IMG/VR virus record: IMGVR_UViG_3300030330_005139
DNA from: a virus
Taxonomy: Duplodnaviria > Caudoviricetes
DNA length: 64,000 nucleotides
Strand: one strand, 5' to 3'
Both the position numbers and the translations under genes were made by a program. Positions 20,132 to 48,900 of this stretch are shown here, piece after piece. Numbering within the stretch: position 1 is the stretch's first letter; every line of letters starts with the position of its first letter. Below the pieces are notes generated by a model. It was given only the letters and a program-made list of their open reading frames with translations. It had not been told where the DNA came from and ran no database searches.

Positions 20132-20761
20132 ATGAAGAATCTGAGAGATTTTGTGTCTGAAGCAACTTACGATCCAGATATTGCTGGTCGTTCTCAGATC
20201 AGAACAATGGGACAGGGTGGCAGACTGGCACCTTCCAAGAAAAAAGACGAAGCTCAGAAGACAAGAATGAAAGCCGCTGGTGGCGGTAAGATGGTCCCTG
20301 CAAAGGATTATAAACCTCGTTCTGACATTGGAACACCCAAACCCAAGTCCGCAAACATTCAACAACCCACAAAAGAACGTGGGTCTGCTGAGGTCAAACA
20401 GTCTTACGCAGATAAAGTAAGAGCTGAGAGAAAAGCTGCAGCACAAGCAAGAATTGCTGCTAAGAAATCAGGTGGTGAGGTGAAGAAAGACACCACATCT
20501 GCCAAAGCAAGTGAGAAGCAGGCAACTGAACTTCTGAAGAAAAAGACAACCAAGGCTGTCAACCCTAATTACAAGCCCCAGAAAGCGTCAGGATATACTA
20601 GACAAGAGCGCATGAAGATTACCCGCAAAGGTGAGACTGAACTCCGTGGCATCATGAAGCAACAAGAGACAGATCGTTATAAGAAAGAAACTGGCACCAA
20701 CCCTGACGCAAAAGGTCGGACTAAAATTATGGGTAGAGTACATCGCAGGATGAGCACTTGA
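20132..20761 (+). CDS. basic late protein, possibly internal head protein
   Basis: Late promoter ATAAATA at 20103-20109; K/R-rich; N-terminus MKNLRDFVSEA. Confidence 0.7.
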   Translation: MKNLRDFVSEATYDPDIAGRSQIRTMGQGGRLAPSKKKDEAQKTRMKAAGGGKMVPAKDYKPRSDIGTPKPKSANIQQPTKERGSAEVKQSYADKVRAERKAAAQARIAAKKSGGEVKKDTTSAKASEKQATELLKKKTTKAVNPNYKPQKASGYTRQERMKITRKGETELRGIMKQQETDRYKKETGTNPDAKGRTKIMGRVHRRMST

Positions 20762-20823
20762 TGTGTTATAATGTTAGTAACCACCAAAGCTCCCCTTTGG
20801 TGTAATCACTAATCTAAAACGAC

Positions 20824-21015
20824 ATGTCGAGCACCCTTCTGGCAATTCAATCTCTTCGTAAAGTTTGGCGTGAGCAAGACTTCAAATTGAGTTCTGATCA
20901 ACAAAAACGTCTCGACGAGTTGACAGACCTTCGCCGCCGTGAAGTGAGTGAATTCTATGAACAGGGTCGCGTTTGGTCTGGTCCTTCTGAGGCTAGCAAA
21001 CCCGTCGAAGAGTGA
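20824..21015 (+). CDS. hypothetical protein (cassette after repeat 1)
   Basis: 63 aa ORF between the repeat and a terminator. Confidence 0.75.
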   Translation: MSSTLLAIQSLRKVWREQDFKLSSDQQKRLDELTDLRRREVSEFYEQGRVWSGPSEASKPVEE

Positions 21016-21021
21016 CAAACT

Positions 21022-21047
21022 GAGGGGGTTTCGCCCCCTCTTTTTTT
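21022..21047 (+). terminator. intrinsic terminator
   Basis: GAGGGGG-TTTCG-CCCCCTC followed by T7. Confidence 0.85.
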
Positions 21048-21060
21048 ATCTTAACTTATC

Positions 21061-21354
21061 ATGACAATGACTGAATCTAATTACAGAGTTCTGAAGTTTG
21101 GTAATCATCCCACCGAGGGTTTGTGGAACAGCAGAACATTCACTCGTTCGCTTGTTGAGGCAGAAAGTCTTTTTCATGAAGCAGAGGTTGAGCGTGCCAC
21201 TGGTGGAGATCTCATCGGTTCTGTTCTCATTAAGGTTGATGACGATTCCTGGCATGTCCTTGACAAGTTTGGCACAGAGGGTTACAGTATTGGTCTGTCT
21301 CAAGTTGGAGTGTTTGAGGTCTCAAATTCCGACACTGTTATGGATCTATCATGA
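21061..21354 (+). CDS. hypothetical protein
   Basis: 97 aa ORF. Confidence 0.7.
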   Translation: MTMTESNYRVLKFGNHPTEGLWNSRTFTRSLVEAESLFHEAEVERATGGDLIGSVLIKVDDDSWHVLDKFGTEGYSIGLSQVGVFEVSNSDTVMDLS

Positions 21355-21623
21355 AATTTGTTGACTTTACGGCAGAAGAATATACCTTCGTTACCAAATT
21401 ATTGGAAGAGACGAAGGCATCTACAAACAAGGATCTTAAAGTTCTGAATGGTGCAATCTTGGCTCTCAAAATTGCATCGGCTGACGACCATTACCGTCGT
21501 TATGTGAAGATTGCTCCTCATGGTGAAAGACTCACTAGGGAACAATTCTTTGAGGAACTTTATCATATAACTGAACAAGATTTGAAGTCAAGAGATGATA
21601 ACGGCGGTTTCGGTTATTGTTAG
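21351..21623 (+). CDS. hypothetical protein
   Basis: ATGA coupling; stop TAG lies inside repeat 2. Confidence 0.7.
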   Translation: MKFVDFTAEEYTFVTKLLEETKASTNKDLKVLNGAILALKIASADDHYRRYVKIAPHGERLTREQFFEELYHITEQDLKSRDDNGGFGYC

Positions 21624-21647
21624 TAACCTCTAAAGCTCCCCTTTAGT

Positions 21648-22553
21648 ATGACTAAACCTCTCACCCACATAGCCCACCCAGAAGACCTCATCCTCTCCGG
21701 TGAGCTCTGGGTGGTTGATGCCCTAACTAATCAAGCCAATCACATCTCTGTCAAGATTGATGGAGCACCTGCGATTGTCTGGGGAACTCACCCACAAACT
21801 GGTAAGTTCTTTGTTTCAACCAAGTCTGCTTTCAACAAGAAAAAGGACAAAATCTGTTACACCATTGATGATGTCAGAAAGCACTTCAAAGGTGTTTATG
21901 AACTCCAAGACATTCTGATCACCTGTCTTATGAACTTGCCCGTAACTGAGGGCATCTTCCAAGGTGATTTCATTGGTTTTGGTGGTGAAGGTCAGAAAGC
22001 TTTCACTCCTAACACTCTCACCTACACCTTCTCTGAGGCACCACATCAGACCATCATTGTCGCCCCTCATACTTATTATGAGGTGGATTCTGACACTCAC
22101 ATGAGTCAAGCAGTCCCACATCCTCTGAAGGGTGATCTCATCTCGACCGACGATTGTTTGTTCATTCAACCTTTCGTTGATCGTTTCCAACGTGATCACC
22201 GTCCCTTCAAGATTAACAAGTCTCGTTGGAACTTTCTCTCTCAGAAAGACGCACAAAGTGCAATCATCTCCATCAACGCTTTGATCCGTTCTGGTCAAGA
22301 ACTTGATGACCAAACTCTCATCGAGATCATCGGTGATGCTGACCTGGTTAACCTCTATCAACTGGTCATTTCTCTAAAAGAGATGTTTATGGATGATCTC
22401 ATCGTTTATGGTTCTCCGACCTGTTCTGTGGGGTCTGAGAGGGTTCTGGCAGAGGGTTTCGTTATTTACTCCGACCACGGTGACATTCCTCTGAAACTTG
22501 TCAATCGTCATGAGTTCGCATTCAACAACATGAACTATGGTAAATTCTCCTGA
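21648..22553 (+). CDS. putative ligase-like covalent nucleotidyltransferase-fold protein
   Basis: KIDG, FQGDF, EGFV and LKLV resemble ligase motifs I, III, IV and V; ATG inside repeat 2, stop abuts repeat 3. Confidence 0.6.
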   Translation: MTKPLTHIAHPEDLILSGELWVVDALTNQANHISVKIDGAPAIVWGTHPQTGKFFVSTKSAFNKKKDKICYTIDDVRKHFKGVYELQDILITCLMNLPVTEGIFQGDFIGFGGEGQKAFTPNTLTYTFSEAPHQTIIVAPHTYYEVDSDTHMSQAVPHPLKGDLISTDDCLFIQPFVDRFQRDHRPFKINKSRWNFLSQKDAQSAIISINALIRSGQELDDQTLIEIIGDADLVNLYQLVISLKEMFMDDLIVYGSPTCSVGSERVLAEGFVIYSDHGDIPLKLVNRHEFAFNNMNYGKFS

Positions 22554-22605
22554 TTATTGTTAGTAACCTCCAAAGATCACCTTTAGTGTAACCGCCCCCC
22601 AACAC

Positions 22606-22803
22606 ATGAACGAACAGAACTCCAATCAACTGCGAGACAAAAGCATTGACACAATGGGTCAGACTCTTTTTGACCGTTTCGCTGAACTTCTGGACGACGA
22701 TCAAGAAACCGCTAAGGCACTCCATTCTGAATGGGTTGTTGATGGTCAGGATCCCGAAGAAGGCGATTACGAGTTCATCTTTGTTGAAAAGATCTCCTCA
22801 TGA
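22606..22803 (+). CDS. hypothetical protein
   Basis: Starts 12 nt after repeat 3. Confidence 0.7.
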   Translation: MNEQNSNQLRDKSIDTMGQTLFDRFAELLDDDQETAKALHSEWVVDGQDPEEGDYEFIFVEKISS

Positions 22804-23006
22804 AAAATCTCTCAGATCGCACAATTTCTAACCTGGCAACTGCAGTCCATGAGTCTGTCGTCAAACAGATCTACAGTGATCCTAAATTCCTGACAGACTT
22901 GTCTGAAGCCCTTGGCAGATCCCTCACCGAGCTTTATGGTGAGATGGACGAACAACTAAGGTCAGATATTGGAATGTTAATTTTCGACAGGATGACAATC
23001 AAATGA
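22800..23006 (+). CDS. hypothetical protein
   Basis: ATGA coupling. Confidence 0.7.
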   Translation: MKNLSDRTISNLATAVHESVVKQIYSDPKFLTDLSEALGRSLTELYGEMDEQLRSDIGMLIFDRMTIK

Positions 23007-23215
23007 GCAAATGGATTGTTCAGAAACCCTCCATTCTTGACCCAAAACAAATCTCTCACGGGTTTGTCATCAATGATGGAGAATATGCAGCAGTCCCAAT
23101 GAGTAACAGCGACGCACAACTGATGGTCATCCATAACGGATCACCACTCAAAGTTTGTCGTAACGAATCATCAGCTTTCAACTTTATCAAGAAACACCAA
23201 AAACGAAGAAAATGA
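23003..23215 (+). CDS. hypothetical protein
   Basis: ATGA coupling. Confidence 0.7.
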   Translation: MSKWIVQKPSILDPKQISHGFVINDGEYAAVPMSNSDAQLMVIHNGSPLKVCRNESSAFNFIKKHQKRRK

Positions 23216-23424
23216 AACAAACATTCAGATTCTTTTCATCCATCATCATCGGTTCTGTGGCACTTGCTGGTGTCTCTTTCATCTTTGATCAACAACGTAA
23301 CCAACAAGATTTTGTTGGTGGGCGAGTTGTTGGTTATGTTGAAGTTTCTCCTGGTGTTTGTGAATCCACCTTCATGGGAGAAGACAATGAGTTCTACATT
23401 ATTCAAGAGGAGTGCAACAAATGA
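23212..23424 (+). CDS. hypothetical membrane-anchored protein
   Basis: N-terminal hydrophobic helix; ATGA coupling. Confidence 0.7.
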   Translation: MKQTFRFFSSIIIGSVALAGVSFIFDQQRNQQDFVGGRVVGYVEVSPGVCESTFMGEDNEFYIIQEECNK

Positions 23425-23606
23425 TCAACACTGATCTTCTCGCAGTCATCGAAAGTCTGGAAGATGGTGTGAATGTCTCATATGAGGCACTTGATGATCC
23501 TGATCGGGGTTATACTTACGCCACTAGATATTCACGAGTCACGATGACTCACGCCATTGAATGTCTCAAACTCATCATTGAACAAAACCAAAAAGAAAAT
23601 GATTGA
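23421..23606 (+). CDS. hypothetical protein
   Basis: Start re-called to ATG 23421 (ATGA coupling). Confidence 0.7.
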   Translation: MINTDLLAVIESLEDGVNVSYEALDDPDRGYTYATRYSRVTMTHAIECLKLIIEQNQKEND

Positions 23607-23769
23607 CACTGATCTTCTCATCGCTTACGAAGAAGGAACCATTGAAAAAGATCAGTTCCTTGAATTGTTCCAACAAATTTATGACTCTAGGGCATATACC
23701 TGGCTTCAAGGTCATTATGGTCGCACACTTTCTGACCTGGCACAAGCTGGTCTGATAAATCTCAAGTGA
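23599..23769 (+). CDS. hypothetical protein
   Basis: MIDTDLL..WLQGHYGRT; stop abuts repeat 4. Confidence 0.7.
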   Translation: MIDTDLLIAYEEGTIEKDQFLELFQQIYDSRAYTWLQGHYGRTLSDLAQAGLINLK

Positions 23770-23820
23770 TTATTGTTAGTTACCCCTAAAGCTCCCCTTT
23801 AGTGTAACCACTGATTTACT

Positions 23821-24009
23821 ATGACACTCACTGAAAGAAACCAAAAACTCTTCGAACTTCGTCAGAAACTCAACAAAGCCCGTGCAGAAGTTGCATGGAT
23901 TGAGCAAGAGATCTGGCTCACCAAAGATCAATATGATCGTGAGGGTCTTGACCTCTTCAAAGAAATGGGTCTCGATAGTCCCATGTTCTACGAAATTTAC
24001 GGAGGTTGA
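23821..24009 (+). CDS. hypothetical coiled-coil protein
   Basis: Starts 11 nt after repeat 4. Confidence 0.7.
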   Translation: MTLTERNQKLFELRQKLNKARAEVAWIEQEIWLTKDQYDREGLDLFKEMGLDSPMFYEIYGG

Positions 24010-24013
24010 TGAC

Positions 24014-24181
24014 ATGATCACATCTAAGACACAAATGCTCAAGATCATGAAAACCTGTGCTCATGCAGATACTCTCACCCGAGAAGAAAAGTTTCTTGTC
24101 TTCTGTAGAGTATGTGACAACATGCTCAAAGAGGGCAGAATGACCAAGGCAACACATAAACGGTTCACTCAGATTTGGTGA
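24014..24181 (+). CDS. hypothetical protein
   Basis: ATG 24014; stop 2 nt before repeat 5. Confidence 0.7.
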   Translation: MITSKTQMLKIMKTCAHADTLTREEKFLVFCRVCDNMLKEGRMTKATHKRFTQIW

Positions 24182-24235
24182 CATTATTGTTAGTTACCCC
24201 TAAAGCTCCCCTTTAGTGTAACCACGTTTTCCATT

Positions 24236-24583
24236 ATGACTTTCGTAGCTCCACAACACAAATCAGAATATCTCACTGAGTGTCTCATTGAGGTTCTCAA
24301 CAACCGTGAGAAAGTGAACGCTCTTGAGTCTTCACGAACCGTTTACACTAACTTCGAGTATGAAGTTGGTCGTAAGTACATCAAAGTCTGGTCTTATCTG
24401 GTCGATGGTGATGAACGTCTCCGTGGTCGTTCCTGTTACATGTTCGTGGACAAAGAGACTGGAGCGGTTTACAAACCAGCCTCTTATAAGGCACCCGCTA
24501 AGGGCATTCGGTTCCAGATTGATCAGTTGGCTGATAACCCTGACATCTGTGATCCTTATGGGAGTTTCCTTTACATCCGATGA
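24236..24583 (+). CDS. hypothetical phage protein
   Basis: GRKYIKV..FVDKETGAVYKPASYKAPAKGIRF; lies between repeat 5 and a terminator. Confidence 0.8.
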   Translation: MTFVAPQHKSEYLTECLIEVLNNREKVNALESSRTVYTNFEYEVGRKYIKVWSYLVDGDERLRGRSCYMFVDKETGAVYKPASYKAPAKGIRFQIDQLADNPDICDPYGSFLYIR

Positions 24584-24587
24584 GAAT

Positions 24588-24615
24588 GAGAGAGGTTTAC
24601 AACCTCTCTTTTTTT
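24588..24615 (+). terminator. intrinsic terminator
   Basis: GAGAGAGGTT-TAC-AACCTCTCTT followed by T run. Confidence 0.8.
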
Positions 24616-24713
24616 ATGTTAAAATCCTTTTGTCTCAATGAAGGCGCTAAGAATCTAGAGTACATTGTTAGTAACCTCTAAAGCTCTCCTGTAGTGTAAC
24701 TTACTTGGTTTTT

Positions 24714-24908
24714 ATGACCAGTTCTGATCTTCGTCCTAATGTTGTGATGGAAATGGATGATTATTCATCCACCTTTGAACTCCTAACCCTTGACTTTAAG
24801 GCACGAGTAAAGATTCACAACTATGAAGTAAAGAAACTCGGTGAGGACATCAGAGCACTTTTCAACTTCGTTTCTGATAAGATGTTCTTCAAACTCATCG
24901 ACATGTGA
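24714..24908 (+). CDS. hypothetical protein
   Basis: ATG 12 nt after repeat 6. Confidence 0.65.
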   Translation: MTSSDLRPNVVMEMDDYSSTFELLTLDFKARVKIHNYEVKKLGEDIRALFNFVSDKMFFKLIDM

Positions 24909-24913
24909 TGAAC

Positions 24914-24939
24914 GAGAGAGGAGTAATCCTCTCTTTTTT
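24914..24939 (+). terminator. intrinsic terminator
   Basis: GAGAGAGGA-GTAA-TCCTCTCT followed by a T run merging into repeat 7. Confidence 0.8.
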
Positions 24940-24990
24940 ATTGTTAGTTACCTCCAAAGCTCACCCTTAGTGTAATCACTCATTCAAACC

Positions 24991-25170
24991 ATGATTCACT
25001 ATCTCGTTAAGTGTCCCTCTGATCCTTATGAGAACACCGATTGTTTAAGTGATCTCGACAGGGCTTGGGATCTCTGTCTCTCACTCGCTGAAGAGTATGG
25101 ATACGCCGAAGTTGGTTACTATAACATCCAAGGACATTACCAACTCGTCGGTGATTATTGTTTCAACTGA
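24991..25170 (+). CDS. hypothetical protein (59 aa)
   Basis: MIHYLVKCPSDPYE..GDYCFN after repeat 7; below ORF-track cutoff. Confidence 0.7.
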   Translation: MIHYLVKCPSDPYENTDCLSDLDRAWDLCLSLAEEYGYAEVGYYNIQGHYQLVGDYCFN

Positions 25171-25172
25171 TT

Positions 25173-25325
25173 ATGAATAATAATACCACTAACTCTGTCA
25201 TTTCTCTTGTTACCTATCTTCAGGAACTGGAAGAGAACAACAAAATCAATGAGAGTGAGTACAAAAGAGCGTTGAAACTTGTAAACAATATTGTTAGTAA
25301 CCTCCAAAACTCTCCTTTAGTATAA
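25173..25325 (+). CDS. hypothetical protein (50 aa) reading through repeat 8
   Basis: Open frame ending NNIVSNLQNSPLV. Confidence 0.55.
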   Translation: MNNNTTNSVISLVTYLQELEENNKINESEYKRALKLVNNIVSNLQNSPLV

Positions 25326-25339
25326 CCCACTCAATCATT

Positions 25340-25474
25340 ATGACACCTGAAGAATTTGAAGAAAATGTCAGAATCATCACGGGAGATCCTAACTGGTCCC
25401 TCCCTGATGATGAAGACAATAATGTTAGTAACCCCCAAAGCTCTCCTTTAGTACAACCCACTCAACCATTATGA
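25340..25474 (+). CDS. hypothetical protein (44 aa) reading through repeat 9
   Basis: Open frame ending NNVSNPQSSPLVQPTQPL; ATGA overlap with next gene. Confidence 0.5.
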   Translation: MTPEEFEENVRIITGDPNWSLPDDEDNNVSNPQSSPLVQPTQPL

Positions 25475-25659
25475 AAACTAAGAATCCTCGTCTTGTCTTT
25501 GGTGATGATGAATTCACCTTCTTCCGTGTTAAACTCCTTGAAGAGGTAAAAGCTCAGAAGAGGTTGTTCAACCCAACTCAAGCAAAGAAAGAACAGAAGA
25601 AGGCAGACGATTGTCTTCGTTATCTGATGAACCATCAACCACACCAACTGGAATTCTGA
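25471..25659 (+). CDS. hypothetical protein
   Basis: Starts 12 nt after repeat 9. Confidence 0.7.
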   Translation: MKTKNPRLVFGDDEFTFFRVKLLEEVKAQKRLFNPTQAKKEQKKADDCLRYLMNHQPHQLEF

Positions 25660-25808
25660 TGAACACTTTACAAGTCGAACAATTACAGGAAGACATCATC
25701 ACAATCATGGAATCTCATTTTCCTAATGAGAACGTAGATGAGGTGATTGAACTTCTATGTGACGCTGTTAACCAAAACATTTCACCCACACTTTCTGATC
25801 ATGACTAA
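25659..25808 (+). CDS. hypothetical protein
   Basis: TGATG coupling. Confidence 0.6.
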   Translation: MNTLQVEQLQEDIITIMESHFPNENVDEVIELLCDAVNQNISPTLSDHD

Positions 25809-26091
25809 AACTGAAGCACTCGCCATCTTCAAGCGAGCAGGATACACTTTCATTGGATACAAGGACACTGGCTGGGGTTGTAAGCAGTACTACTTCACTC
25901 ACCCCAACATTCAAGGAACTGAGGTTTCTTATGATCTGCCACTGTTGAGAAAGAGAGCAAGACATCTCGACATCAAGATGTGGCATGATGAGTATAAGGA
26001 ACAGCTGAGACAGGGCATTCAGGAGACTCTCTTCACTGACACGGAGATTGAGTGTAATTACTTCATCGAGAACCCTGTTGTAGTCGCCTAA
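25801..26091 (+). CDS. hypothetical protein
   Basis: ATG 25801; stop overlaps base 1 of repeat 10. Confidence 0.7.
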   Translation: MTKTEALAIFKRAGYTFIGYKDTGWGCKQYYFTHPNIQGTEVSYDLPLLRKRARHLDIKMWHDEYKEQLRQGIQETLFTDTEIECNYFIENPVVVA

Positions 26092-26148
26092 TATTGTTAG
26101 TTACCTCCAAAGCTCCCCTTTAGTGTAACCACTCATTCAACTCAAATC

Positions 26149-26631
26149 ATGGCAACTCGTGGACGAATTGGAATCAAACTTTCTGATGGTTCCATCCTCT
26201 CAGCTTATCATCACTGGGACTCCTATCCTCAGTGGCTCGGTGTTAACCTGGTGAAGAACTTCAATTCTTTTCAGAAAGCAGCTGAACTCATCGATGGTGG
26301 TGACATGTCAGCATGTTACACTACTCATACTTGGGAGTCTGAACCTCTCAAACGAGAGATCATTCAACCTGATGGATCTTCTAAGTTCGAGTACATCAAA
26401 GACAATGAAGGCAACTGGGTTTACACCAAAGTGAAGCCAGAAGCTGGTCCTCAGTATTACTCTGAGCGTGGTGAGGATTGTCCTCCCCGTCTCGATCCTG
26501 ACCTTTTCGAGTATCTCTCCAAAGGCGAAGAATTCGCATACGTTTTTGAAGGTGGAACCTGGATATGTTATGATCTACATGAGTTCGATAGTGAGGAACC
26601 TGAAATTGTTGAAATCCCTCAGGTTCTCTGA
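26149..26631 (+). CDS. hypothetical phage protein
   Basis: MATRGRIG..YHHWDSYP motif; single-gene cassette between repeats 10 and 11. Confidence 0.8.
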   Translation: MATRGRIGIKLSDGSILSAYHHWDSYPQWLGVNLVKNFNSFQKAAELIDGGDMSACYTTHTWESEPLKREIIQPDGSSKFEYIKDNEGNWVYTKVKPEAGPQYYSERGEDCPPRLDPDLFEYLSKGEEFAYVFEGGTWICYDLHEFDSEEPEIVEIPQVL

Positions 26632-26690
26632 TTATTGTTTGTAACCTCTAAAGATCCCCTTTAGTGTAATCAACCATTTTCTCTAAACTG

Positions 26691-26909
26691 ATGACCAACC
26701 CTTCACAAACCCATAAAGCTCTTCAACTCCTTCGTGATGGGTTCATGATTGAGTTGACTGAAAAGATCTACACCGATGATCGATTCACAAATCTCATGAT
26801 GGATCTCACCTCTGAGTTTGTTGAGCAAAACATTCCCGTTGTTGATGAAGATCTCCAAGTGGATCTGGCACTGATGATGATGGAATCGATCTCGCTTCGT
26901 TCTTATTGA
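26691..26909 (+). CDS. hypothetical protein
   Basis: Follows repeat 11. Confidence 0.7.
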   Translation: MTNPSQTHKALQLLRDGFMIELTEKIYTDDRFTNLMMDLTSEFVEQNIPVVDEDLQVDLALMMMESISLRSY

Positions 26910-26916
26910 TTTAAGT

Positions 26917-27435
26917 GTGACCGTGAAAACCAACCAAGAATTTATTTCCCTTGTAGAAGAGAGAACTCAATCAATTCTTTCCACCAAAGGTGATGTTGGG
27001 CGTCAGGCAATCGCAACGACTCGCGGTCAACAGGTGGAGAAAGCAGCAGCAATCTTATTATCGGATCACCCCAACGTTGAGAGTGTGGTTGAACAAGTCT
27101 TTGAAGAGGAAGTAGACGAGTTCTCCAACATTGACCTGGTTGTTACCACTAAAGACGGTCGAACAGTTTATGTACCCTGTGCTCGTGATCTTTGGTTGGG
27201 GACATCACAACAAGATCGCCTTCAGATTGTATGGGCAAAGTTTAAGGGTGGACTGTTTAATGACCATGATGTCTGTTATCTCTGCCTGGATGATATTAAC
27301 ACAATCTTGAACAAAGAGCACCGCAAGAGTGCCAGACGGGGACCAAAGATCAAAAACTGCTGTCGTGTTCTATTTGAAGCTGGAGTGATAATGAACTTCG
27401 AACACCTTTGGAATCACCTTCTCACCACTGATTGA
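26917..27435 (+). CDS. hypothetical protein, possible PD-(D/E)XK nuclease-like fold
   Basis: GTG start; RG..VE helix followed by IDLVV..VYV pattern; catalytic motif incomplete. Confidence 0.5.
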   Translation: MTVKTNQEFISLVEERTQSILSTKGDVGRQAIATTRGQQVEKAAAILLSDHPNVESVVEQVFEEEVDEFSNIDLVVTTKDGRTVYVPCARDLWLGTSQQDRLQIVWAKFKGGLFNDHDVCYLCLDDINTILNKEHRKSARRGPKIKNCCRVLFEAGVIMNFEHLWNHLLTTD

Positions 27436-27493
27436 TGGTGATTATTGTTTGTAACCTCCAAAGCTCCCCCTTAGTGTAACCATGTTTTTCATT

Positions 27494-27688
27494 ATGGCAT
27501 TTCTCGACTGGATTCAAGAAGCAATCGGTTCTAAAGTTGAAGACGAATTTGGCATGGTTCATGTCATCACAGGTGGCAAACTTGTGGCTGACTCTCCCAT
27601 GTGGCCGATGATTCAACTGACTGATGACATGGGTGTTCTACGATATGTCACTCTTGATCGTTTCATGGAACTCGTTTCTGTTGGGTGA
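27494..27688 (+). CDS. hypothetical protein
   Basis: Single-gene cassette between repeats 12 and 13; alternative ATG at 27482. Confidence 0.7.
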   Translation: MAFLDWIQEAIGSKVEDEFGMVHVITGGKLVADSPMWPMIQLTDDMGVLRYVTLDRFMELVSVG

Positions 27689-27803
27689 TATTGTTTGTTA
27701 CCTCCAAAGCTCTTCATTAGTGTAACCAGGACTTCTTCTCTAAGGTTGTTTCTCTGAAAAGACTTCTTCCTTAGAGTTGTTTCTCCTCTTAAACAAAAAC
27801 ATC

Positions 27804-28010
27804 ATGGTCTATCTCATCTCTCAATCCAACGGTTGCACATACACTCTCGACCCCGATCATTCCCGAGTTCTGTATTACGCACCTTTGTTGTCCGATGGTA
27901 CTTGTGAAACCGCATTCTCAGCTTACGCTGAAGTCGAATGGGACGAATTGGATGAAGATGTTCTTAACGAAGCAGATCGTTGTTATCACCTTCTGATGTC
28001 TGATCGTTGA
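27804..28010 (+). CDS. hypothetical protein
   Basis: ATG 27804; cassette between repeats 13 and 14. Confidence 0.7.
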   Translation: MVYLISQSNGCTYTLDPDHSRVLYYAPLLSDGTCETAFSAYAEVEWDELDEDVLNEADRCYHLLMSDR

Positions 28011-28064
28011 GGATTATTGTTTGTTACCTCCAAAGCTCTTCATTAGTGTAACCACATCAACCTC

Positions 28065-28208
28065 ATGAAACTCGTTCTTTTCGTCATCGTTGGAATTCTG
28101 TTCTGGACGAGTGATGACGCACGAAACTTTACCGCTAATCAACTCAATAACGCAGCTGAAATCGTCCGACCTGATACTAACAAGAACTCCTTCACAATCA
28201 AATTCTGA
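28065..28208 (+). CDS. small membrane/secreted protein (47 aa)
   Basis: MKLVLFVIVGILFW..; stop abuts repeat 15. Confidence 0.7.
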   Translation: MKLVLFVIVGILFWTSDDARNFTANQLNNAAEIVRPDTNKNSFTIKF

Positions 28209-28264
28209 TTATTGTTTGTTACCACCAAAGCTCCCCTTTAGTGTAACCACTCATTCAACCAATC

Positions 28265-28501
28265 ATGACTAACACCACTTACAACGGCTGGGCCAATTAC
28301 GAGACCTGGAATGTCGCTCTCTGGCTTGGAAATGACGAATCGATGTATCAAATGGCTCGGATGTTCCGCCATCATGGTTATAAGTCACTTTCACACATGT
28401 TGGAAGAAACTTTCGGTTCTGTGACTCCCGATGGTGTATATTGGAAGCACTCTGATCTTGACATTGAAAGTCTCAATGAAATGTTAGAGGATGATTTCTG
28501 A
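28265..28501 (+). CDS. hypothetical phage protein
   Basis: YNGWANYETWNVALW..TPDGV motif. Confidence 0.8.
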   Translation: MTNTTYNGWANYETWNVALWLGNDESMYQMARMFRHHGYKSLSHMLEETFGSVTPDGVYWKHSDLDIESLNEMLEDDF

Positions 28502-28503
28502 TT

Positions 28504-28791
28504 ATGTCATCAATTTATCAACTCCGCGGATCCACTTTGGATCCTTTTCTTTCTGCTAAACTTGCACCTTTCATTCACGCACATCGTCCACATGATAAAC
28601 CTCCCGCTAAAGAAGATTTGGATAAAGGTGATTACATCCCCAAAGAATCGCCATTGTCTAAAGATAACATCATCGACACTTATAAGGCAATTAAGTATCA
28701 CCAAGACCTTGAATGGTTAAAGAGAAAGAGAGAGTATAATAGTAAGTGGAAAGGATACAGATCTCATTTTGCGTTAGGTATCTCCGAATGA
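28504..28791 (+). CDS. hypothetical protein
   Basis: 95 aa; ATGA coupling to next gene. Confidence 0.6.
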   Translation: MSSIYQLRGSTLDPFLSAKLAPFIHAHRPHDKPPAKEDLDKGDYIPKESPLSKDNIIDTYKAIKYHQDLEWLKRKREYNSKWKGYRSHFALGISE

Positions 28792-29249
28792 AAGAATTTG
28801 ATTATGAACTTGATTACAAACGTCTTGACTTTACAGATGAAGAAACTCGTCAACTTTATCGTATTGGAAGGGGAGAACAAGGGGTTTTATTGGTACGCCC
28901 TTACACAGACGATATTTGTGCTCATTGGAAATTTAAAACCCCTCGTTTAGCATCATTATCATCACAAAAGATTCTAAAGATGTATGAAGATTATAAGGAG
29001 AATAAGGACTTTATTGGTATGGATATGTGTCGTAAGTTTTTAGAGATGGGTTTCACAAGAGCAAGAAGATATGCCAATCATAAGGATGGAAAGAAGTATA
29101 ATTCTCAGGGGGAGGTGTTACCTCAGGAGAAGGATTGGAGAACATCACCTAAGGCACAATCTGCTGTCATTTTTAAGAAGATAAGGGACCAAGTTGCTTA
29201 TGATCCTGTTTATAAGGAGATGAGAAGGTTATGGAGGGATAATGAGTAA
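28788..29249 (+). CDS. DUF4385-like protein
   Basis: YRIGRGEQGVL..PY..WKFKT..DFIGMDMCRKFLEMGFTRARRYANH; start re-called to ATG 28788. Confidence 0.8.
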   Translation: MKEFDYELDYKRLDFTDEETRQLYRIGRGEQGVLLVRPYTDDICAHWKFKTPRLASLSSQKILKMYEDYKENKDFIGMDMCRKFLEMGFTRARRYANHKDGKKYNSQGEVLPQEKDWRTSPKAQSAVIFKKIRDQVAYDPVYKEMRRLWRDNE

Positions 29250-29535
29250 ATGGTCCTAAAAAAAGGTCATAAATAACACTTTTTTATTAAATAAATGGTT
29301 TTTTAAATGTGTATGAGTGTTTTATTGTTTTCCACAAGTAATGTTCAATTCTGTGGAAATCGTGTGGAATAGTGTGATAAACTGTGGAAAAGTAACAGAA
29401 TAAGAGAGAGAATTATGGTCATCTTTTATCGTCCTAAATGTCTCCTGCCGTTGTGACTTATGTGTCTGGAAATGTGCCAGGTCTTGTGATCTTATTGTCA
29501 GTTTATGTCACCTGGCGTTGTGATCTTGGCGAGCA
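29250..29535. other. putative replication origin-like element
   Basis: AT-rich tract 29256-29330; TTTTCCACA-type boxes at 29328, 29352, 29363, 29373 and 29383; ~34-bp repeats at 29437-29530. Confidence 0.55.
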
Positions 29536-29626
29536 TTCTAACAGAAGGACTCAGAAATGTCAACCCCCCTCCGAGACACTCCCACCCCCAGATTGCAATT
29601 CCTTATGTATGACTTTCGCAACACAC

Positions 29627-29656
29627 TTAACACAGTGGAGATATACTTGTTATAAT
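29627..29656 (+). promoter_or_regulatory. sigma70-like promoter with extended -10
   Basis: TTAACA-18-TATAAT with TG motif. Confidence 0.6.
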
Positions 29657-29694
29657 ACTTTTGTCCTCATAAAGGCACTGAGACTCAGCAGCAT

Positions 29695-30243
29695 ATGAAT
29701 ATACTTACCAAGACACTTTTAGGCACTCTGAGTCTACTCAGCACCATCACTGCCACTGTACTCTCAGGAGAACAGATTGGTAAGTATCACTTCATGACTG
29801 GTGAAGACTTTGGAGAACATGAAGCACTTGCCACACAACTGATTGATACACTGAACCAGATGAATGTGCCTGTGTTGGATGGTACTAAGAATGAACTCTC
29901 ACAGTGTACATCAAAGACGAGTAATGTTCTGGGGTACTACTCAGCAAAGCATGATGTGATGGTGATTTGTACTAAGGATGTTCCAGATTGGTTGAGGTTT
30001 GAGACATTGGTGCATGAGACAGTTCATGTCATTCAAGACGCCAGAGATGGGTTGGAGAATGACACATTAGGGCAACCTGGTAGGAGTTACATTTCTACCC
30101 TATATGGAGATCTGGCTAAGAAGAAGCGCCGCCTAATCCGTGAGTCTTATCCACAGTCTCAGTGGAATGTTGAGGTGGAGGCATTCTACTTTGAGACGAA
30201 ACCTCAGGTGGTGTTGAATGAACTGAAGACGTGGGCATTCTGA
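29695..30243 (+). CDS. signal-peptide zincin-like metallopeptidase
   Basis: Hydrophobic N-terminus; LVHETVHVIQD; EVEA. Confidence 0.75.
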   Translation: MNILTKTLLGTLSLLSTITATVLSGEQIGKYHFMTGEDFGEHEALATQLIDTLNQMNVPVLDGTKNELSQCTSKTSNVLGYYSAKHDVMVICTKDVPDWLRFETLVHETVHVIQDARDGLENDTLGQPGRSYISTLYGDLAKKKRRLIRESYPQSQWNVEVEAFYFETKPQVVLNELKTWAF

Positions 30244-30282
30244 TGGTGTTATTGTTAGTAACCTCGAAACCTCTTCTTTAGT

Positions 30283-30519
30283 ATGAACAACACTTCTACC
30301 ATCACTTTCCGTCAAGCACTTGTCATTCTTGAAGAACACTTTGACTCAACCTATCGTGGCATCAAAAGTGTTCGTGAAATGTGTTCAGATTTGACTGACG
30401 CGATGTATTGGGACAAGGAAGATCCCAACACAATCTATCATCAATTCGAGACTAAATTTGGTCCGAATCGTATTGTCAAAGACGATCAAATCATCAAACT
30501 TGCTCTACACTACGTTTGA
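30283..30519 (+). CDS. hypothetical protein
   Basis: ATG inside repeat 16. Confidence 0.7.
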   Translation: MNNTSTITFRQALVILEEHFDSTYRGIKSVREMCSDLTDAMYWDKEDPNTIYHQFETKFGPNRIVKDDQIIKLALHYV

Positions 30520-30527
30520 CCCATTGA

Positions 30528-30556
30528 TTGACAACTAAGGAAGAAACAGTTATTAT
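30528..30556 (+). promoter_or_regulatory. sigma70-like promoter
   Basis: TTGACA-17-TATTAT. Confidence 0.75.
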
Positions 30557-30769: not shown

Positions 30770-30798
30770 TTGACAAATAAGAACAGTTCTGGTATACT
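30770..30798 (+). promoter_or_regulatory. sigma70-like promoter
   Basis: TTGACA-17-TATACT with TG extended -10. Confidence 0.75.
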
Positions 30799-32402: not shown

Positions 32403-32479
32403 GTGTAGATTGTTGTTGAACCAAATAAATAAGTTTGTTATAATAACTTTATTCATTGTTTTCGTTGGAGATTGATTGA

Positions 32480-42900: not shown

Positions 42901-45900
42901 CCGACTCACTTTTCTACAATTTCATTCCAGTAAATGCTCAAATTGCCCCAGTAAACAAATTGTCAGCCGTAATTGACAGAACGGTGGCTGGACATAACCA
43001 AATTGAGATTGTTAAGAGTCCATATTCCACAAATGCTGCAATTTCTGGAATTGGAAGCACCTCCTTCACTTATTCGATTGTTTCAAAACCAACAGAACCT
43101 GGATATAACGAAGAATCAGCCGAATTTAGTTATATTACTAACTCTAGGAATGAGTCTGGTCCAATTGCTTCGTTCTTCGTTGAAAATGGAGGAACTAACT
43201 TTAACTCTCTTCCTGGAATCACTTCAGTTACAAGTGTAAGTGGTAGTGGTGCTCTCGTTACTCCTGAAAGTAACAATATTGGAATCATTCAGAACACTCA
43301 GTTCACTGACATTGGTTATGATTACCCAAGTGATGAGACAATGAGACTTGTCTCCAATGTTCCTGAGCGTTTGACCCTGAGTGCCAGTGCTAAACTTGAC
43401 TTTGTTGGAATCTCTTCTCAAGGTAGAAATTACACCAGACCAGCCAAACTCGTTTTCATTGACGGTGAAACCAAAGAGGTTCTCAGTGATGTTGATTCCA
43501 CATACAAACTTGGAGGCAAGGAAGTAAAGATCATTACTCAACCAGATTTCATGTCAAGAGCGACACCAAGAGTCGTTCCGACAGAAAACTCAAATGGTGT
43601 TGGAATTCTCTCTGCTTCGTTCGATTCTTCGACAAGAAGAGCGAGAGCATTCCTTGACAGAACCTTCAGTGTGACTCCCACCAATTATCCAATTGAAGTT
43701 GGTGATAGTGTGATTGTTGAGGGAATCTCAATTGGTTCTGTTGGAGTTGGAACAACAGGTAAGGGTTATAACTCAGCAGATCATGGTTACAAATTCTTTG
43801 AAGTTACTGACATTGATTTCCAACTTGGTGGAGCAAATGCTTACATTGAATATGACTTGTCGAAAGTTATTAAAGCTGGTCAAGTTGCAGGTAATTGTTT
43901 AGTTGATCAAACATATGGAAACATAAGCAATGAGAAAGACCTTGCAACATTCAGCGTTCGACTTAGAAATGCTCAGTTTGCTATTGGTGAACAGGTTGTC
44001 TCTGAGACGACTGGATTGACTGGTGTTGTAAGAGATTGGATTGACATCTCTGAAACTCTAACAGTTCTCTCAAAGGATGACTTCAAAGTTGGTGAGGTTA
44101 TTCGTGGTGTTGCTTCAAGAGCAGTTGGCACTATTGAACAAACAACAGATGACCAGGCAGAGATCATTACTGGAGCTGGAACTACTGTTATTCATGGTTG
44201 GCAGTCAATTTCTGGTGTTCTCAATAATGATTTCCAGAAACTTCCCAACAATGAATATTATCAGAACTTCTCTTACTCACTGAAGTCTCAAGTCCCTTAT
44301 GGAACTTGGAACGATCCTGTGAGTGCGATGACACACACTGCTGGATTCCAAAAGTTTGGTGATCTCCAGATTGAAAGTAAAGAAGCTGGTTTTACTGCAG
44401 TTGTTCAGCCTGCGGCATCCAGAGCGGATCTGGTTATTGACCTTGAGAGTTCTGCTGATTTGAATTGTTATTATTCTTGGGATAATGTTTCTGAGGACAC
44501 CGTTGAAATCAATGGAACTGTTACTAGTAATGTAATCAACTTTGATAATAAGGTTCTGACAGATTACACCAAGTCTATTACAAACAGAGCTCTCAGAATT
44601 GATGACTTTAGTGATACTTTCAACTCAAATCAGAGACTTGAACAGTTCTCTGTTGTTGCGAGTTATCCATCCTCTCGTATCTATAATAAGGTCATCGCTC
44701 TTGTTACCGATCAAGAGTTCCAGAATGACACTCAGATGGCAATTCTTGCCACTCTAAACGGAAAAGTTTTGAGTGAATATGCAGTCAGTTCGACTGCTGT
44801 TGATCTTGGAACATTTGACATTTCAATTAATCTTGATACCACCGATCATGAGATTTCATTCTTCCCAACATTCTTCACCATCAACAGATATGATATTACA
44901 ACTCTGAGTTTCTCTGAAACTATTGATGACGCTGCGGCGAATGACATCAGTCTCGGAAACATTGTCAGATTTGATTCGAAGGCTGTTACCGCAACTGGTG
45001 GATCTTCTATTGAAGTTATTACGATTCCTTCAACATACAGATCAGCAAAGATTCACGCTCTTGCGGTTGATGATGAAACCGGTGAGGCATTTGGAACAGA
45101 AGTCAATCTTATCAATGATGGAAGTGAAGTTCTGAGTGTGTTTATTAACACTGTTGAGGAGAGTAATAATTTATCTGCACAACAGACAAATGCTTACACA
45201 CCTGGCATTGGAACCTTTGGTGCAGCCAACAGCAGTGGATCAACTGTTATCACCTTCTACCCAAGTGGAACCAATGATGTCAACGTTATTGCTAATGTTG
45301 CTCAGTTGAGATCATCTCCTGGTGGAACTGGTGGATCCCAAACTTTGAAAGTTGCGAAACTGAATGCATCTCAAACTTCCATTGCACCCACTGCTTCACC
45401 CACTGCAGTTGGAATTGCTTCCTTTACAACTCCTTATGAGGCTGATTATCTGACAGTTCAATTGACTGACACAACCAACGCCGAATTGGAACTCTTTGAC
45501 CTCACAGTCTTGGCGGCGACAGATGAAGTTCCGATCAATGACATTCGTTTTGGTGACATCAGAACTGGTGGAACAATTGGAACTGTTGGAACAAGAAGAG
45601 ATGGTGAGTTCATTGTCATTGAGTTTACACCTGTTGCTAATGTCGCAGTTGATGTTACTGTTTATGAGAATCAACTTCAGATTGATTCAGGAAATGGATC
45701 TCCCAATGATATTGATCTGAATTCTTCCATCATTGGTGGTCAGAGTGGAAACTATACAGGTACTCAGCTTGACCCACAAACAGAGTTTGAACTGAAGCAT
45801 AATGATATTCCAATCTTCCGTAAGGAGTTCATTGGTAATGATTCTGAAATTGTTAATGTTCAGTTTAACACAATTGAGATTCCAAACCACTATTTCGAAA

Positions 45901-48900
45901 CTGGTGAGTTGTTGGAATACTCTTACGCTGGAACCGGAACAACTCAAGCAATTGGAATTGTCACAACCAATGTTCCTGGAATCGGTAACACAGAATATGT
46001 TCCCCACCAAGTTTATGCTGTCAAGGTTGATGACAAGACAATCAGATTAGCAACATCTGCAGAGAAAGCTCTGAAGTATCCGACTCCTGAAGTTCTTGAC
46101 TTCACCACAGTTGGTTTTGGTGTTTCTCACAGCTTCACCTCAACTAATCAGAACGCTAAGCTTCTGGTTGCTCTTGATAATATGATCCAGTCCCCAATCT
46201 CTCGGACTGGAATCACAACAACACTTCAGGAGAGTGTCACCTTCTCGTCTGAACTTCCTGTTGTTGGTGTTCAGTCATTCTTCGCTGGTGACATCATCCA
46301 GGTTCGTGAAGAGTTGATGACTGTTACCGCAGTCAACTCAGTCACAAATAATCTCAGTGTGTTGAGAGCACAACTTGGAACCATTCTTGCATCTCACCCA
46401 GCTGATACTGTCGTGAGGAAGATGGTTGGTAATTATAATATTGTCAATAACAACATCAACTTTGTTAAAGCTCCGTTTGGTAAGGTTCCCGTCAATGTTA
46501 CTGGTGGTGACCCTGAGTTTAGAGACTGGACTGGTTTGACAACCAGTTCCACCTTCCAAGGAAGAGTGTTCCTGAGAACTGCTCCTATCAACTCTTCAGA
46601 TGAGACTTACGATCATAACTATGTGTTTGATGATATCTCATCTTCTTTCAATGGAATTACAACTAATTTCACTCTGAAGAGTTCTGGAAATAGTGTTTCT
46701 GGAATGTCATCGGATAACGCTGTCATTATGGTTGATGGAATTATCCAGAAACCCGACCCAATTAGTGTTGGTGGAACGGATTATGAGAAGTCTAGTTACA
46801 CAATATTTGAGAACGGAAGTAACACCGATATTCAGTTCTTTGGAACCTCTGATATTCTTGATTATGATCCAAACAGAGCTGGTCTTCCCCTTGGTGGAGT
46901 TATTGTGTCACTTGGAATGACTCAGGGTCTTGGTTATCAACCCTTGGTTTCCGCAGGTGGAACATCAGTTGTTTCTGGATTGGGAACCATCTCTTCCATC
47001 AGCATTGGAAACTCTGGTTCTGGTTACCGTCCTGGAATTCAAACCTTCATCAATGTCGGTGTTCAGACCTACAGTGATGGTGTTCCAAACATTGAATTTA
47101 TTGGAACAGCAGCCGTCAGTGGTGGCCACATTGTGAGCATCGCGATCACCAACCCAGGAACTGGTTACACATCCACCAATCCACCTGAAGTTGTCATCGA
47201 TGCACCTCTCAATTACACCAACATTCCTCTGATCTACAGTGATGAAACAACCACTGGAGTAGGAACTGGTGCTGTTGTTGATATTGTTGTCGGACAGGGT
47301 TCCAGCATTATTAACTTTGTTCTTAGCAGATCTGGATATGGTTATAGAGATTTGGAAAAACTGACCGTTGAGATTGGTGGAACAACTGGAATTCCCACAG
47401 ACACCTCTGTCACATTCAATGAGTTCCAACTTGAAGTTGAGTCAATCAAAGATCAAAGTTTTAATGGTTGGTCTGTTGGTGGTCTTAAGGTTTATGATTC
47501 TATCACTAAGTTCTTTGATGGTAAGCGTACTTCTTTCCCACTTCTGTTGGAAGGAGAGTACTCCGCGATTGATAAAGATAAGGGAGTCAACATTGACCTG
47601 GATCACACTCTGATTGTCTTTATTGGTAATGTTCTCCAAGAACCAGGAGTTGCTTATAACTTTAAGGGTGGCTCATTCATTACCTTTACAAAGGCACCAG
47701 AACCAGGTGAAGATTCACTGATTCTCTTCTTTGAGGGAACTCCTGGATTAGACACCAAATTCACCAGAGTTCCTAAGACAGTTCAACGTGGTGACACTCT
47801 TGAGATTCCAAGATATCGTGATGAGACCATCTCTATCGCTGGCCAGGATCCGAGAATTGTTTCTCTTGTTCCTTCCACTGACTTTGTCAACACCACACCT
47901 TACACTGGTCCTGGAATCGATCCGACTGGTGGATTGCTTAGACCTGTTAATTGGTGTAAGTCCACAGTTGACAAGGTCATTGATGGAACTGTCGCTGGTA
48001 AAGACAGAGAACTCTTTGAGACATCTCTCTTCCCAACAGCAACTGTGATTCAGTCCGTTGGTCTTGGTTCGACTCAAATTTATGTTGATCATCTGAGACC
48101 AATGTTTAACGCGGTCAATGAGGATAACGCAACTCCTTTAGAACCTGATTATCAGAATAGTATAAGATTCAACACTCAAACTGTTGTTGTTGGTGCAGCT
48201 GGAACAGCTCTGTTGGCGTTCGATGGAACGATCACTGATGTGATTATCAACAATGTTGGATCTGGTTACACTCAAGCTCCAACAATTACATTTGAAACTC
48301 CATCTGGAATTGGAACCGAAGGAAGAGCTGAGGCGACTTCAGTTGTTTCGAACGGTGTTATTGAGTCAATCACGGTGACAAATCCTGGTGTTGGTTACAC
48401 AAGAGTTCCTCACGTCCTCATTGAACCTCCTAAGGTTGTCAGTGAGAAGGTTGATGTTGAAGCTTATTATGGTGATAATGGTAAAATTGTTGGAATGGCA
48501 TTGACCACATTGAGTGCTAATGAGGCTTTCTTCCTCTTTGACTTCTACATTCCTGTTGATTCTCCTCTCAGAGATGAGAAGATTGTTGGAACATCCGCAA
48601 CATCAATTAGTGGAATTTCAACTGGTGACTTCTTTGTTCTGAGTCAAACCAATGGAGCTCTGGTTCAACAAAGAAGAATGCAACCCAGAATGACAGACAA
48701 TGAAACAATCATTTGCGTCACCGACCCCTACTTGGATGGTGTTTGGCAAGTTGACTCCACACAACATCTTGAAACCAATGTCACTGGTGTTGGAACCACC
48801 GCTGTTGTTCGTGTCTTCAGTAGAGTTTCTCTTGGTGGAACAATCACATTTGACACAGATCAGACTGACTTTAGCACCACTGTTATTAAATTTGATAATG

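Follow-up and report, generated by a model that had tools for sequence, protein, structure and literature searches.

We describe here a 40-base repeat that heads 16 small-gene units in the window, by which we mean the whole 64-kb stretch of viral DNA analysed (IMG/VR record IMGVR_UViG_3300030330_005139, class Caudoviricetes). Judged from its sequence, its position relative to genes and its distribution among related genomes, the repeat is probably a phage-specific promoter cassette of one clade of T4-like cyanophages (Kyanoviridae), which doubles as a recombination seam. All coordinates given below are those of the window, and element position 1 is the first base of the 40-base repeat.

The window comes from a T4-like cyanomyovirus, and the array of repeats, which spans 20768-30288, occupies the usual hyperplastic region. 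All 16 copies lie on the + strand, gap-free and in register. The degenerate 40-mer proposed in an earlier note on this DNA, which was made from the letters of the sequence, gave 14 matches at 3 mismatches or fewer, compared with 0 in shuffled sequence, and the copies at 20768 and 30249 were added through gap-free repeat finding. A weight matrix built from the 16 copies and run over both strands of the 64-kb window gave these copies scores of 50-66 bits, the top score outside them being -3.6 on either strand. We therefore recovered, at the same starts, all of the 16 same-orientation and indel-free copies that the earlier note had described. Its observation that none occur outside the island stands for the window, where the scan was clean, and holds or nearly holds for the whole records of relatives and for contigs of 83-141 kb. 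Each unit headed by a repeat consists of 1-6 small open reading frames (ORFs), and most of the 30-odd ORFs across the array have no family, those with one belonging to DUF6267, DUF7417, DUF7717, DUF7249 and DUF4385.

The element belongs to a modular family of T4-like cyanophages

A degenerate pattern searched on IMG/VR returned 68 stretches, in which a weight matrix then located 395 copies, always on one strand per contig. Of these, 314 are non-redundant with full flanks, a set that grows to 343 copies with the window and two cultured phages. Cultured carriers are S-B05, S-B43, SynMITS9220M01, S-SM2 (NC_015279, our L105) and P-TIM68 (NC_028955, our L104). Since 68 IMG/VR stretches and cultured phages carry copies, the element is not private to the window phage, and the uniqueness that the earlier note had implied must be given up: the window holds one lineage's version of a widespread modular family.

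The family consensus reads WTAWWGTTAGTAACCTCYAAA, two variable bases, TCC, any base, CTATAGT, a purine, TAA, any base and CA. Information content in the family alignment is ~2 bits at positions 6-21, 24-25 and 28-36, and conservation begins abruptly at position -1/1, with background upstream, and fades after approximately position 46. A core at positions 18-36 (YAAA, NN, TCC, N, C, TATAGT, purine) is common to most lineages, and an upstream box at positions 5-17 changes with the lineage. This box is ATTACTCACC in S-B05, GTTACTCACC in SynMITS9220M01 and GGGGGGTCGCC in S-SM2, the last with the same core, AAAGCGTCCCTATAGT; P-TIM68 has the upstream box of the window with a different downstream half, and S-B43 carries at least 4 core copies.

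Whole-record scans placed 11 of the 12 S-B05 copies at 31.6-40.4 kb, the remaining one being an orphan, and all 10 SynMITS9220M01 copies at 36.3-50.0 kb on one strand; the same scans gave 0 true motif matches in Syn9 and P-TIM40. In each of five contigs of 46-141 kb, all of the 10-15 copies fall into one island on one strand, and contigs of 83-141 kb carry 8-15 copies within 6-15 kb. The S-SM2 version comprises ~12 copies at 42.7-58.5 kb with a G-rich upstream box, and its box and core could pair as a GGGTCGC/GCGTCCC stem. P-TIM68 has 12 copies at 47.1-56.0 kb, in which the downstream half contains TTGACA and is one base longer, and the leader bears an AGGA Shine-Dalgarno-like sequence. From these two variants, boxes and cores appear to have been exchanged between lineages by recombination.

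Start codons lie at fixed distances from the element

Every copy points in the same direction as the gene that follows it. Among the 343 family copies, the ATG of the first long ORF stands at position 35 (hereafter ATG35) in 98 and at 49-60, with a peak at 50-54, in about 200, and almost never at 36-48. Of the 101 copies with ATG35, 98 open at least 35 codons, and any second ATG, at 50, 53 or 62, is in the same frame. In several gene families ATG35 is the sole possible start, and it is the real start of the DUF6267 gene because the Pfam match begins at residue 6. Unrelated proteins that begin at ATG35 have a common codon pattern, M-x-N/T-T, so that the conserved element takes in the opening codons as far as roughly position 46. 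A purine occupies position 35 in 342 of the 343 family copies and in 16/16 window copies, and T occupies position 34 in 99%.

In the window, ATG is found at element position 52-60 in 12 copies, inside the repeat as ATG35 at 21614 and 30249, and 117 nucleotides (nt) away at 27688. On the other side, the stop codon of the upstream gene abuts or overlaps the first repeat base at 22554, 23770, 26091, 26632, 27688 and 28209, lies 3-6 nt 5' of the repeat at 20768, 27442, 28014 and 30249, and falls inside it at 21614 and 25288, and a doubtful ORF terminates 2 nt 5' of the repeat at 24184. The stop and start geometry reported in the earlier note is thus as described, with the inside-repeat stop at 25288 to be added, and the fixed distance to start codons supports the expression-element part of its reading, in which the downstream genes would form a putative co-regulated host-takeover set.

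The built-in ATG, the T34/purine-35 step and the leader lengths of 0 or 15-20 nt suggest an mRNA 5' end at approximately 33-35. If the element is a promoter, a start at 33-35 is slightly favoured over one at 41-44, and this start would imply a recognition mode other than sigma-A. Additionally, the first S-B05 copy is found inside a 285-bp divergent intergenic region, 11 nt 5' of the first + strand gene, and no sigma-70-like site was found in this region. This placement indicates that the element can stand at the front of a transcription unit, a position that speaks for a promoter rather than a processing site.

The same geometry bears on a reading at the RNA level, to which we assign a low probability. 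Here a long polycistronic RNA would be made from few ordinary promoters, and the repeat would be a processing or translation-initiation signal, acting either through an endonuclease cut near 33-35 that leaves leaderless or short-leader mRNAs or through ribosome recruitment to genes without a Shine-Dalgarno sequence. A 5' end at ~33-35, where no sigma-70 -10 element fits, is compatible with it; so is the scarcity of copies with a terminator upstream, and upstream ORFs often enter or cross the element (stops at positions 10, 33 and 38), which is therefore transcribed in read-through RNA. However, the ~35 nt conserved upstream of the putative end show neither structure nor covariation, as is typical of a promoter and unlike known RNase sites, the element has no Rfam match, and the divergent S-B05 copy has no upstream same-strand transcription to be processed and no sigma-70-like alternative nearby.

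The element resembles neither a sigma-70 promoter nor a structured RNA

In a sigma-70 scan with a threshold of at least 9/12 matches, none of the 16 window copies and no S-B05 copy passed, and the best hexamer pairs in the window repeats match the -35 part at just 2-3/6. The earlier note had set the motif apart from the TTGACA/TATAAT type, and this distinction is upheld by the scan and by the near-consensus host-type promoters found just downstream. These promoters, at 29627, 30528, 30770 and 32416, begin where the array ends (29535-29656, 30528-30556, 30770-30798 and 32416-32444); they have 10-11/12 matches, several with an extended -10 TG, and one of them is on the minus strand, facing back into an AT-rich gap at 29250-29440. 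By their sequence, they are a predicted second promoter class in the same hyperplastic region.

It is improbable, in our assessment, that the element is an early promoter of the ordinary host sigma-A kind and hence a true member of the early-promoter/stem-loop (PeSL) type of T4-type phages, with TAGTRT at 31-36 as its -10, a start at ~42-44 and no special factor. The conserved upstream part would then be a strong UP/-35-like region kept uniform by gene conversion, and within-genome homogenisation can indeed mimic functional conservation. In every lineage TAGTRT retains the two critical bases of a -10, A at -11 and T at -7 (T31 98%, A32 90%, T36 92%), C40-A41 is a typical start dinucleotide, and marine picocyanobacterial promoters often consist of a -10 element alone. 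Nevertheless, the window and S-B05 copies fail the 9/12 scan while true near-consensus promoters adjoin the array, a start at 42-44 would lie downstream of ATG35 in at least 5 gene families, DUF6267 included, and the remaining leaders would be just 6-12 nt long without a Shine-Dalgarno sequence. Moreover, many diverged genomes carry the upstream box unchanged, beyond the single genome within which homogenisation acts.

Computational analysis with Rfam 15 gave no window match at the gathering threshold, and at E<=1 it gave two chance-level hits in the array region, neither of them on the repeat. A conserved hairpin was rejected, as pair 20-30 is canonical in 14% of the family and pair 16-34 in 3%; the AAAG/CTTT stem that can be drawn in the window needs T30, and position 30 is A in 73-77% of the family. 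No long-range covariation was detected in the family, the strongest mutual information being between neighbouring bases only. Folding energies of typical copies (-0.7 to -4.3 kcal/mol, z -1.4 to +1.4) are no better than those of shuffles, copy 1 being a clear outlier at -9.6 kcal/mol. Readings of the element as a terminator, an N4-type hairpin promoter or an attC site were discarded because pairing is unconserved and folding weak, and the GTTAGTAAC palindrome is lost in half of the window copies, those with T at position 12. Several known sequence signals were also considered, namely mimicry of the 16S rRNA 3' end (ACCTCC), the T4 RegA operator, cyanobacterial Pho boxes, NtcA sites (GTA-N8-TAC), RpaB HLR1 repeats, and sigma-28, extracytoplasmic function (ECF) and sigma-54 promoters; all were set aside, the matching bases not being conserved across lineages.

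Units are lost and gained at the element

Three close relatives were compared with the window: L015 (92-96% identical), L055 (~90%) and L101, a 183-kb ENA contig. L055 lacks the unit between 24662 and 24938, and its remaining repeat has the variants of the left copy followed by the leader of the right one. It also lacks the two-gene unit between 26632 and 27442, with the same left/right mosaic and with alignments that overlap by the 40-nt repeat. Since one copy supplies the left flank and variant, and the copy after it the leader, both deletion crossovers took place inside the repeat. Other indels end exactly at the 5' edge of a repeat, at 25659/26091 in L055 and, as a 368-nt insertion, at 28209 in L101. 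A 160-nt insertion at 25177-25336, present in the window alone, brings a small ORF and an extra repeat and is flanked by TTATGA, a leader/ATG motif that is shared.

We then counted synteny breakpoints in all locus pairs at least 88% identical, with the element zone defined as -10 to +60 of its start. Of 230 unique breakpoints, 90 (39%) fall at the element, which covers 6.3% of bases; since the events depend on one another and gene boundaries are preferred sites in any case, a p-value should not be read literally. Variable positions are uniform within each genome and different between genomes, and in the window similarity is higher between neighbouring copies than between distant ones (permutation p = 0.012). 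Both the uniformity within genomes and the likeness of neighbours fit an ongoing exchange between copies.

The breakpoint enrichment, the two crossovers inside the element and a layout like that of a cassette array would also be expected of a pure recombination or mobility site without any role in expression, such as an integron-attC-like site, a homing target or a selfish miniature repeat. We regard this as very unlikely. The strict co-orientation with genes, the fixed start-codon distance and the built-in start codon argue against it, nothing like the conserved inverted repeat or hairpin required by attC is present, no integrase or recombinase family was found among the window ORFs searched, and the copies are restricted to one island instead of being scattered.

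A probable promoter cassette that may double as a recombination seam

Under the promoter-cassette reading that we prefer, a compact promoter of fixed geometry would take up the space that separates one unit's stop codon from the start codon of the following unit, and from it the small genes of a single hyperplastic region would be transcribed. A start at the invariant T34/purine-35 would leave ~30% of the downstream genes leaderless or nearly so, through ATG35, and the remaining genes with leaders of 15-20 nt that are poor in G, rich in C and A and devoid of a Shine-Dalgarno sequence. With 8-16 near-identical, like-oriented copies packed into a few kb, the homologous-recombination machinery of the phage could use the copies as seams, and unequal exchange between them would delete, insert or swap whole units and keep the copies alike within a genome.

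A more specific proposal, which we consider doubtful, is that the element represents a class of promoters outside the reach of host sigma-A. RNA synthesis would begin at T34/purine-35, after CTATAG(T), with about a third of the genes leaderless, and would depend on an extra factor, for which the lineage-specific box would be the address. Candidates for this factor may be an injected virion protein, an immediate-early phage protein or an alternative host sigma.

Several points weigh against the promoter-and-seam interpretation or its details. A start at 33-35 leaves no sigma-70 -10 hexamer, the bases at -12 to -7 being TCC, any base and C, and the sigma-70-like hexamers that do exist (TAGTRT at 31-36, present in every lineage, and TATAGT at 29-34, present in most relatives) imply a start at 41-44, which the conserved C40-A41 step also fits. 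However, such a start is downstream of the ATG35 start codons, and because the window lineage never has A at position 30, TATAGT is excluded there as a sigma-70 -10. The in-frame ATG35 could be maintained by selection on read-through transcripts from upstream copies, and most units must also be read through because terminators are found at few copies only. Promoter activity, start site, timing and the holoenzyme or factor that reads the element are all inferred from sequence. As for the seam, 61% of the breakpoints lie away from repeats, often at stop/start junctions, and the enrichment overstates the role of the repeat, gene boundaries being favoured in any compact phage genome; indels away from repeats include a 178-nt tandem duplication at 23419-23597 and a 194-nt indel at 24012. 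The gain and loss of cassettes at repeats that the earlier note had proposed is accordingly sustained in part: differences among relatives are bounded by repeats and two crossovers lie inside them, but many indels are elsewhere.

T4-like cyanophages are among the most abundant ocean viruses, and most of the unknown genes that they carry reside in their hyperplastic regions. If the promoter-cassette reading is true, one 40-base element would explain how these genes are turned on with neither a host-type promoter nor a ribosome-binding site, and how they are shuffled between phages; a class independent of sigma-A would, if true, be a new way for T4-like phages to launch an accessory-gene programme. 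The element also offers a simple means, from sequence, of marking out accessory-gene units in metagenomic contigs and of correcting their start codons (ATG35), and a concrete bait for a transcription factor that would recognise it. S-SM2, P-TIM68, SynMITS9220M01 and S-B05 are cultured carriers suited to direct tests.

Features of the array and neighbouring genes

The repeats and the terminator-like hairpins of the array are collected in Table 1. Upstream, the array is bordered by tail-fibre and 2-oxoglutarate (2OG)-oxygenase genes, and downstream by purM and the baseplate genes gp25, gp6, gp7, gp8 and gp9/10.

Table 1. Repeats and terminator-like hairpins in the hyperplastic region of the window
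Feature	Coordinates	Strand	Remarks
Whole array, 16 repeat-headed units	20768..30288	+	Hyperplastic region
Repeat 1	20768..20807	+	ATG at element position 57; sole copy with a stable 8-bp hairpin
Repeat 2	21614..21653	+	Upstream stop at positions 8-10; ATG35 of the 301-aa DUF6267 gene
Repeat 3	22554..22593	+	Unit of six small ORFs downstream
Repeat 4	23770..23809	+	Same sequence as repeat 5
Repeat 5	24184..24223	+	Precedes the DUF7717 gene; same sequence as repeat 4
Repeat 6	24662..24701	+	Left partner of the first L055 crossover
Repeat 7	24938..24977	+	Adjoins a terminator hairpin; right partner of the first L055 crossover
Repeat 8	25288..25327	+	Within the 160-nt insertion 25177-25336, absent in L015, L055 and L101
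Repeat 9	25419..25458	+	
Repeat 10	26091..26130	+	Top-scoring copy; indel of an ORF block in L055 exactly at the 5' edge
Repeat 11	26632..26671	+	Left partner of the second L055 crossover
Repeat 12	27442..27481	+	Right partner of the second L055 crossover; extra in-frame ATG at position 41
Repeat 13	27688..27727	+	Unusually long 76-nt leader with a direct repeat
Repeat 14	28014..28053	+	
Repeat 15	28209..28248	+	368-nt insertion at the 5' edge in L101
Repeat 16	30249..30288	+	Holds ATG35 of a 78-aa gene
Terminator-like hairpin and T-run, inside unit 1	21022..21047	+	
Terminator-like hairpin, 46 nt 5' of repeat 6	24588..24616	+	
Terminator-like hairpin, T-run entering repeat 7	24914..24939	+	Sole copy with the PeSL-like order of terminator then promoter

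The DUF6267 gene (21648-22553, + strand, 301 amino acids, PHROG 455) is the largest cassette gene, and a sequence search found no relative of its protein with a solved structure. The 178-nt tandem duplication (23419-23619) is flanked by a 23-nt direct repeat and is single-copy in L015 and L101; its products are two small paralogous ORFs, 23421-23606 and 23599-23769, of which the second belongs to DUF7417. The leader of repeat 13 (27728-27803), the longest in the array, contains two 25-nt direct repeats, 27730-27754 and 27761-27785, that are 84% alike, and no ATG-started ORF of at least 28 codons was found in it before 27804.

Directly 5' of repeat 1, at 20132-20761 on the + strand, is encoded a very basic and largely disordered protein of 209 amino acids, with 1693 homologue clusters in marine metagenomes. 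The N-terminus of this family, MKTFQQFIAEA (MKNLRDFVSEA in the window), is nearly identical to the first 11 residues of T4 IPII/IPIII, MKTYQEFIAEA, which are the capsid-targeting sequence of T4, cleaved after Glu10. From this resemblance, the protein is probably packaged and injected. A homologue co-occurs with the element in S-B05, where it stands beside the orphan copy, and in SynMITS9220M01, P-TIM68 and S-SM2, and no homologue was found in Syn9, P-TIM40 or S-B43. As a specificity factor of the element the protein was demoted to a lead, since S-B43 carries the element without a homologue; moreover, its AlphaFold model is mostly disordered, with confidence only for a C-terminal helical hairpin (residues 157-208), and gives no clue to DNA specificity.

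Comparison with known systems

Promoters of T7-type RNA polymerases have ~30 bp of contiguous conservation ending in CTATAG, a purine start and conservation into the first transcribed bases. The element likewise has ~30 bp of contiguous conservation, CTATAG followed by a purine, and conservation that continues past it, but the window copies read TTTAG and not TATAG. No single-subunit RNA polymerase family was found among the window ORFs searched, and T4-like cyanophages are not known to have one.

T4 middle promoters combine a MotA box centred at -30 with a sigma-70 -10 element. Were the start at 41, the invariant GTTAGTAACC box would be centred at about -30, upstream of a -10-like hexamer, and the layout would be that of an activator-dependent 'sigma appropriation' promoter, as in T4 middle promoters. 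However, the box sequence is unrelated, and the start-codon geometry opposes a start at 41. T4-like cyanophages are also without motA and asiA (PMC5780444). As to integron attC arrays, the element has no conserved hairpin, and no integrase family was found among the window ORFs searched.

Doron and colleagues are said to have described, in 2016, a novel early regulatory element together with host-like middle promoters in Syn9 and P-TIM40, the early element being reportedly conserved among T4-like cyanophages. Like the element studied here, it would be non-canonical and placed before small genes of the same genome region, with host-like promoters for another class; both genomes, however, are without the window motif. 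In the equivalent small-gene region of Syn9 (NC_008296, our L069), at 43114-49101, we observed four exact GTGACA/GTGCCA-N10-TGTCCAC copies and one N11 variant directly after stop codons, with a -10-like TATAnn 28-34 nt further on and sometimes a TTGACA-like -35. The two boxes of this motif form a near inverted repeat. The spacing of these boxes is that of window-element positions 5-11 and 22-28. They may be the published Syn9 early element. Their equivalence to the window element was not established, as there are four exact copies only and looser matches are at noise level.

The promoter search in the S-SM2 genome paper was limited to sigma-70, T4-late, Pho and NtcA sites (Sullivan et al. 2010), and our literature search, literal-sequence search included, found no description of the motif family. 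The closest counterparts are the PeSLs of the T4-type phages RB49/phi1, T4/PST and KVP40/nt-1 (Arbiol et al. 2010, PMC2839356; Comeau et al. 2014, PMC4122927), each of which joins a sigma-70-type promoter (TTGACA-N17-TATAAT or near) to a stable terminator stem-loop; these two papers do not cover cyanophages, and few PeSLs are reported in cyanophage S-PM2 (Puxty et al. 2015, PMC4503421). In both systems, short regulatory cassettes are repeated in hyperplastic regions before small ORFan genes, recombination between copies explains indels and replacements between close relatives, and the consensus varies by lineage. The window element differs from PeSLs in having no sigma-70 consensus and no conserved stem-loop, a single copy (24938) abutting a separate terminator, and in its rigid gap-free length, its lineage-changing upstream box and the start codon built into ~30% of copies. 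Although it fails two of the features that define PeSLs, the element is their functional analogue.

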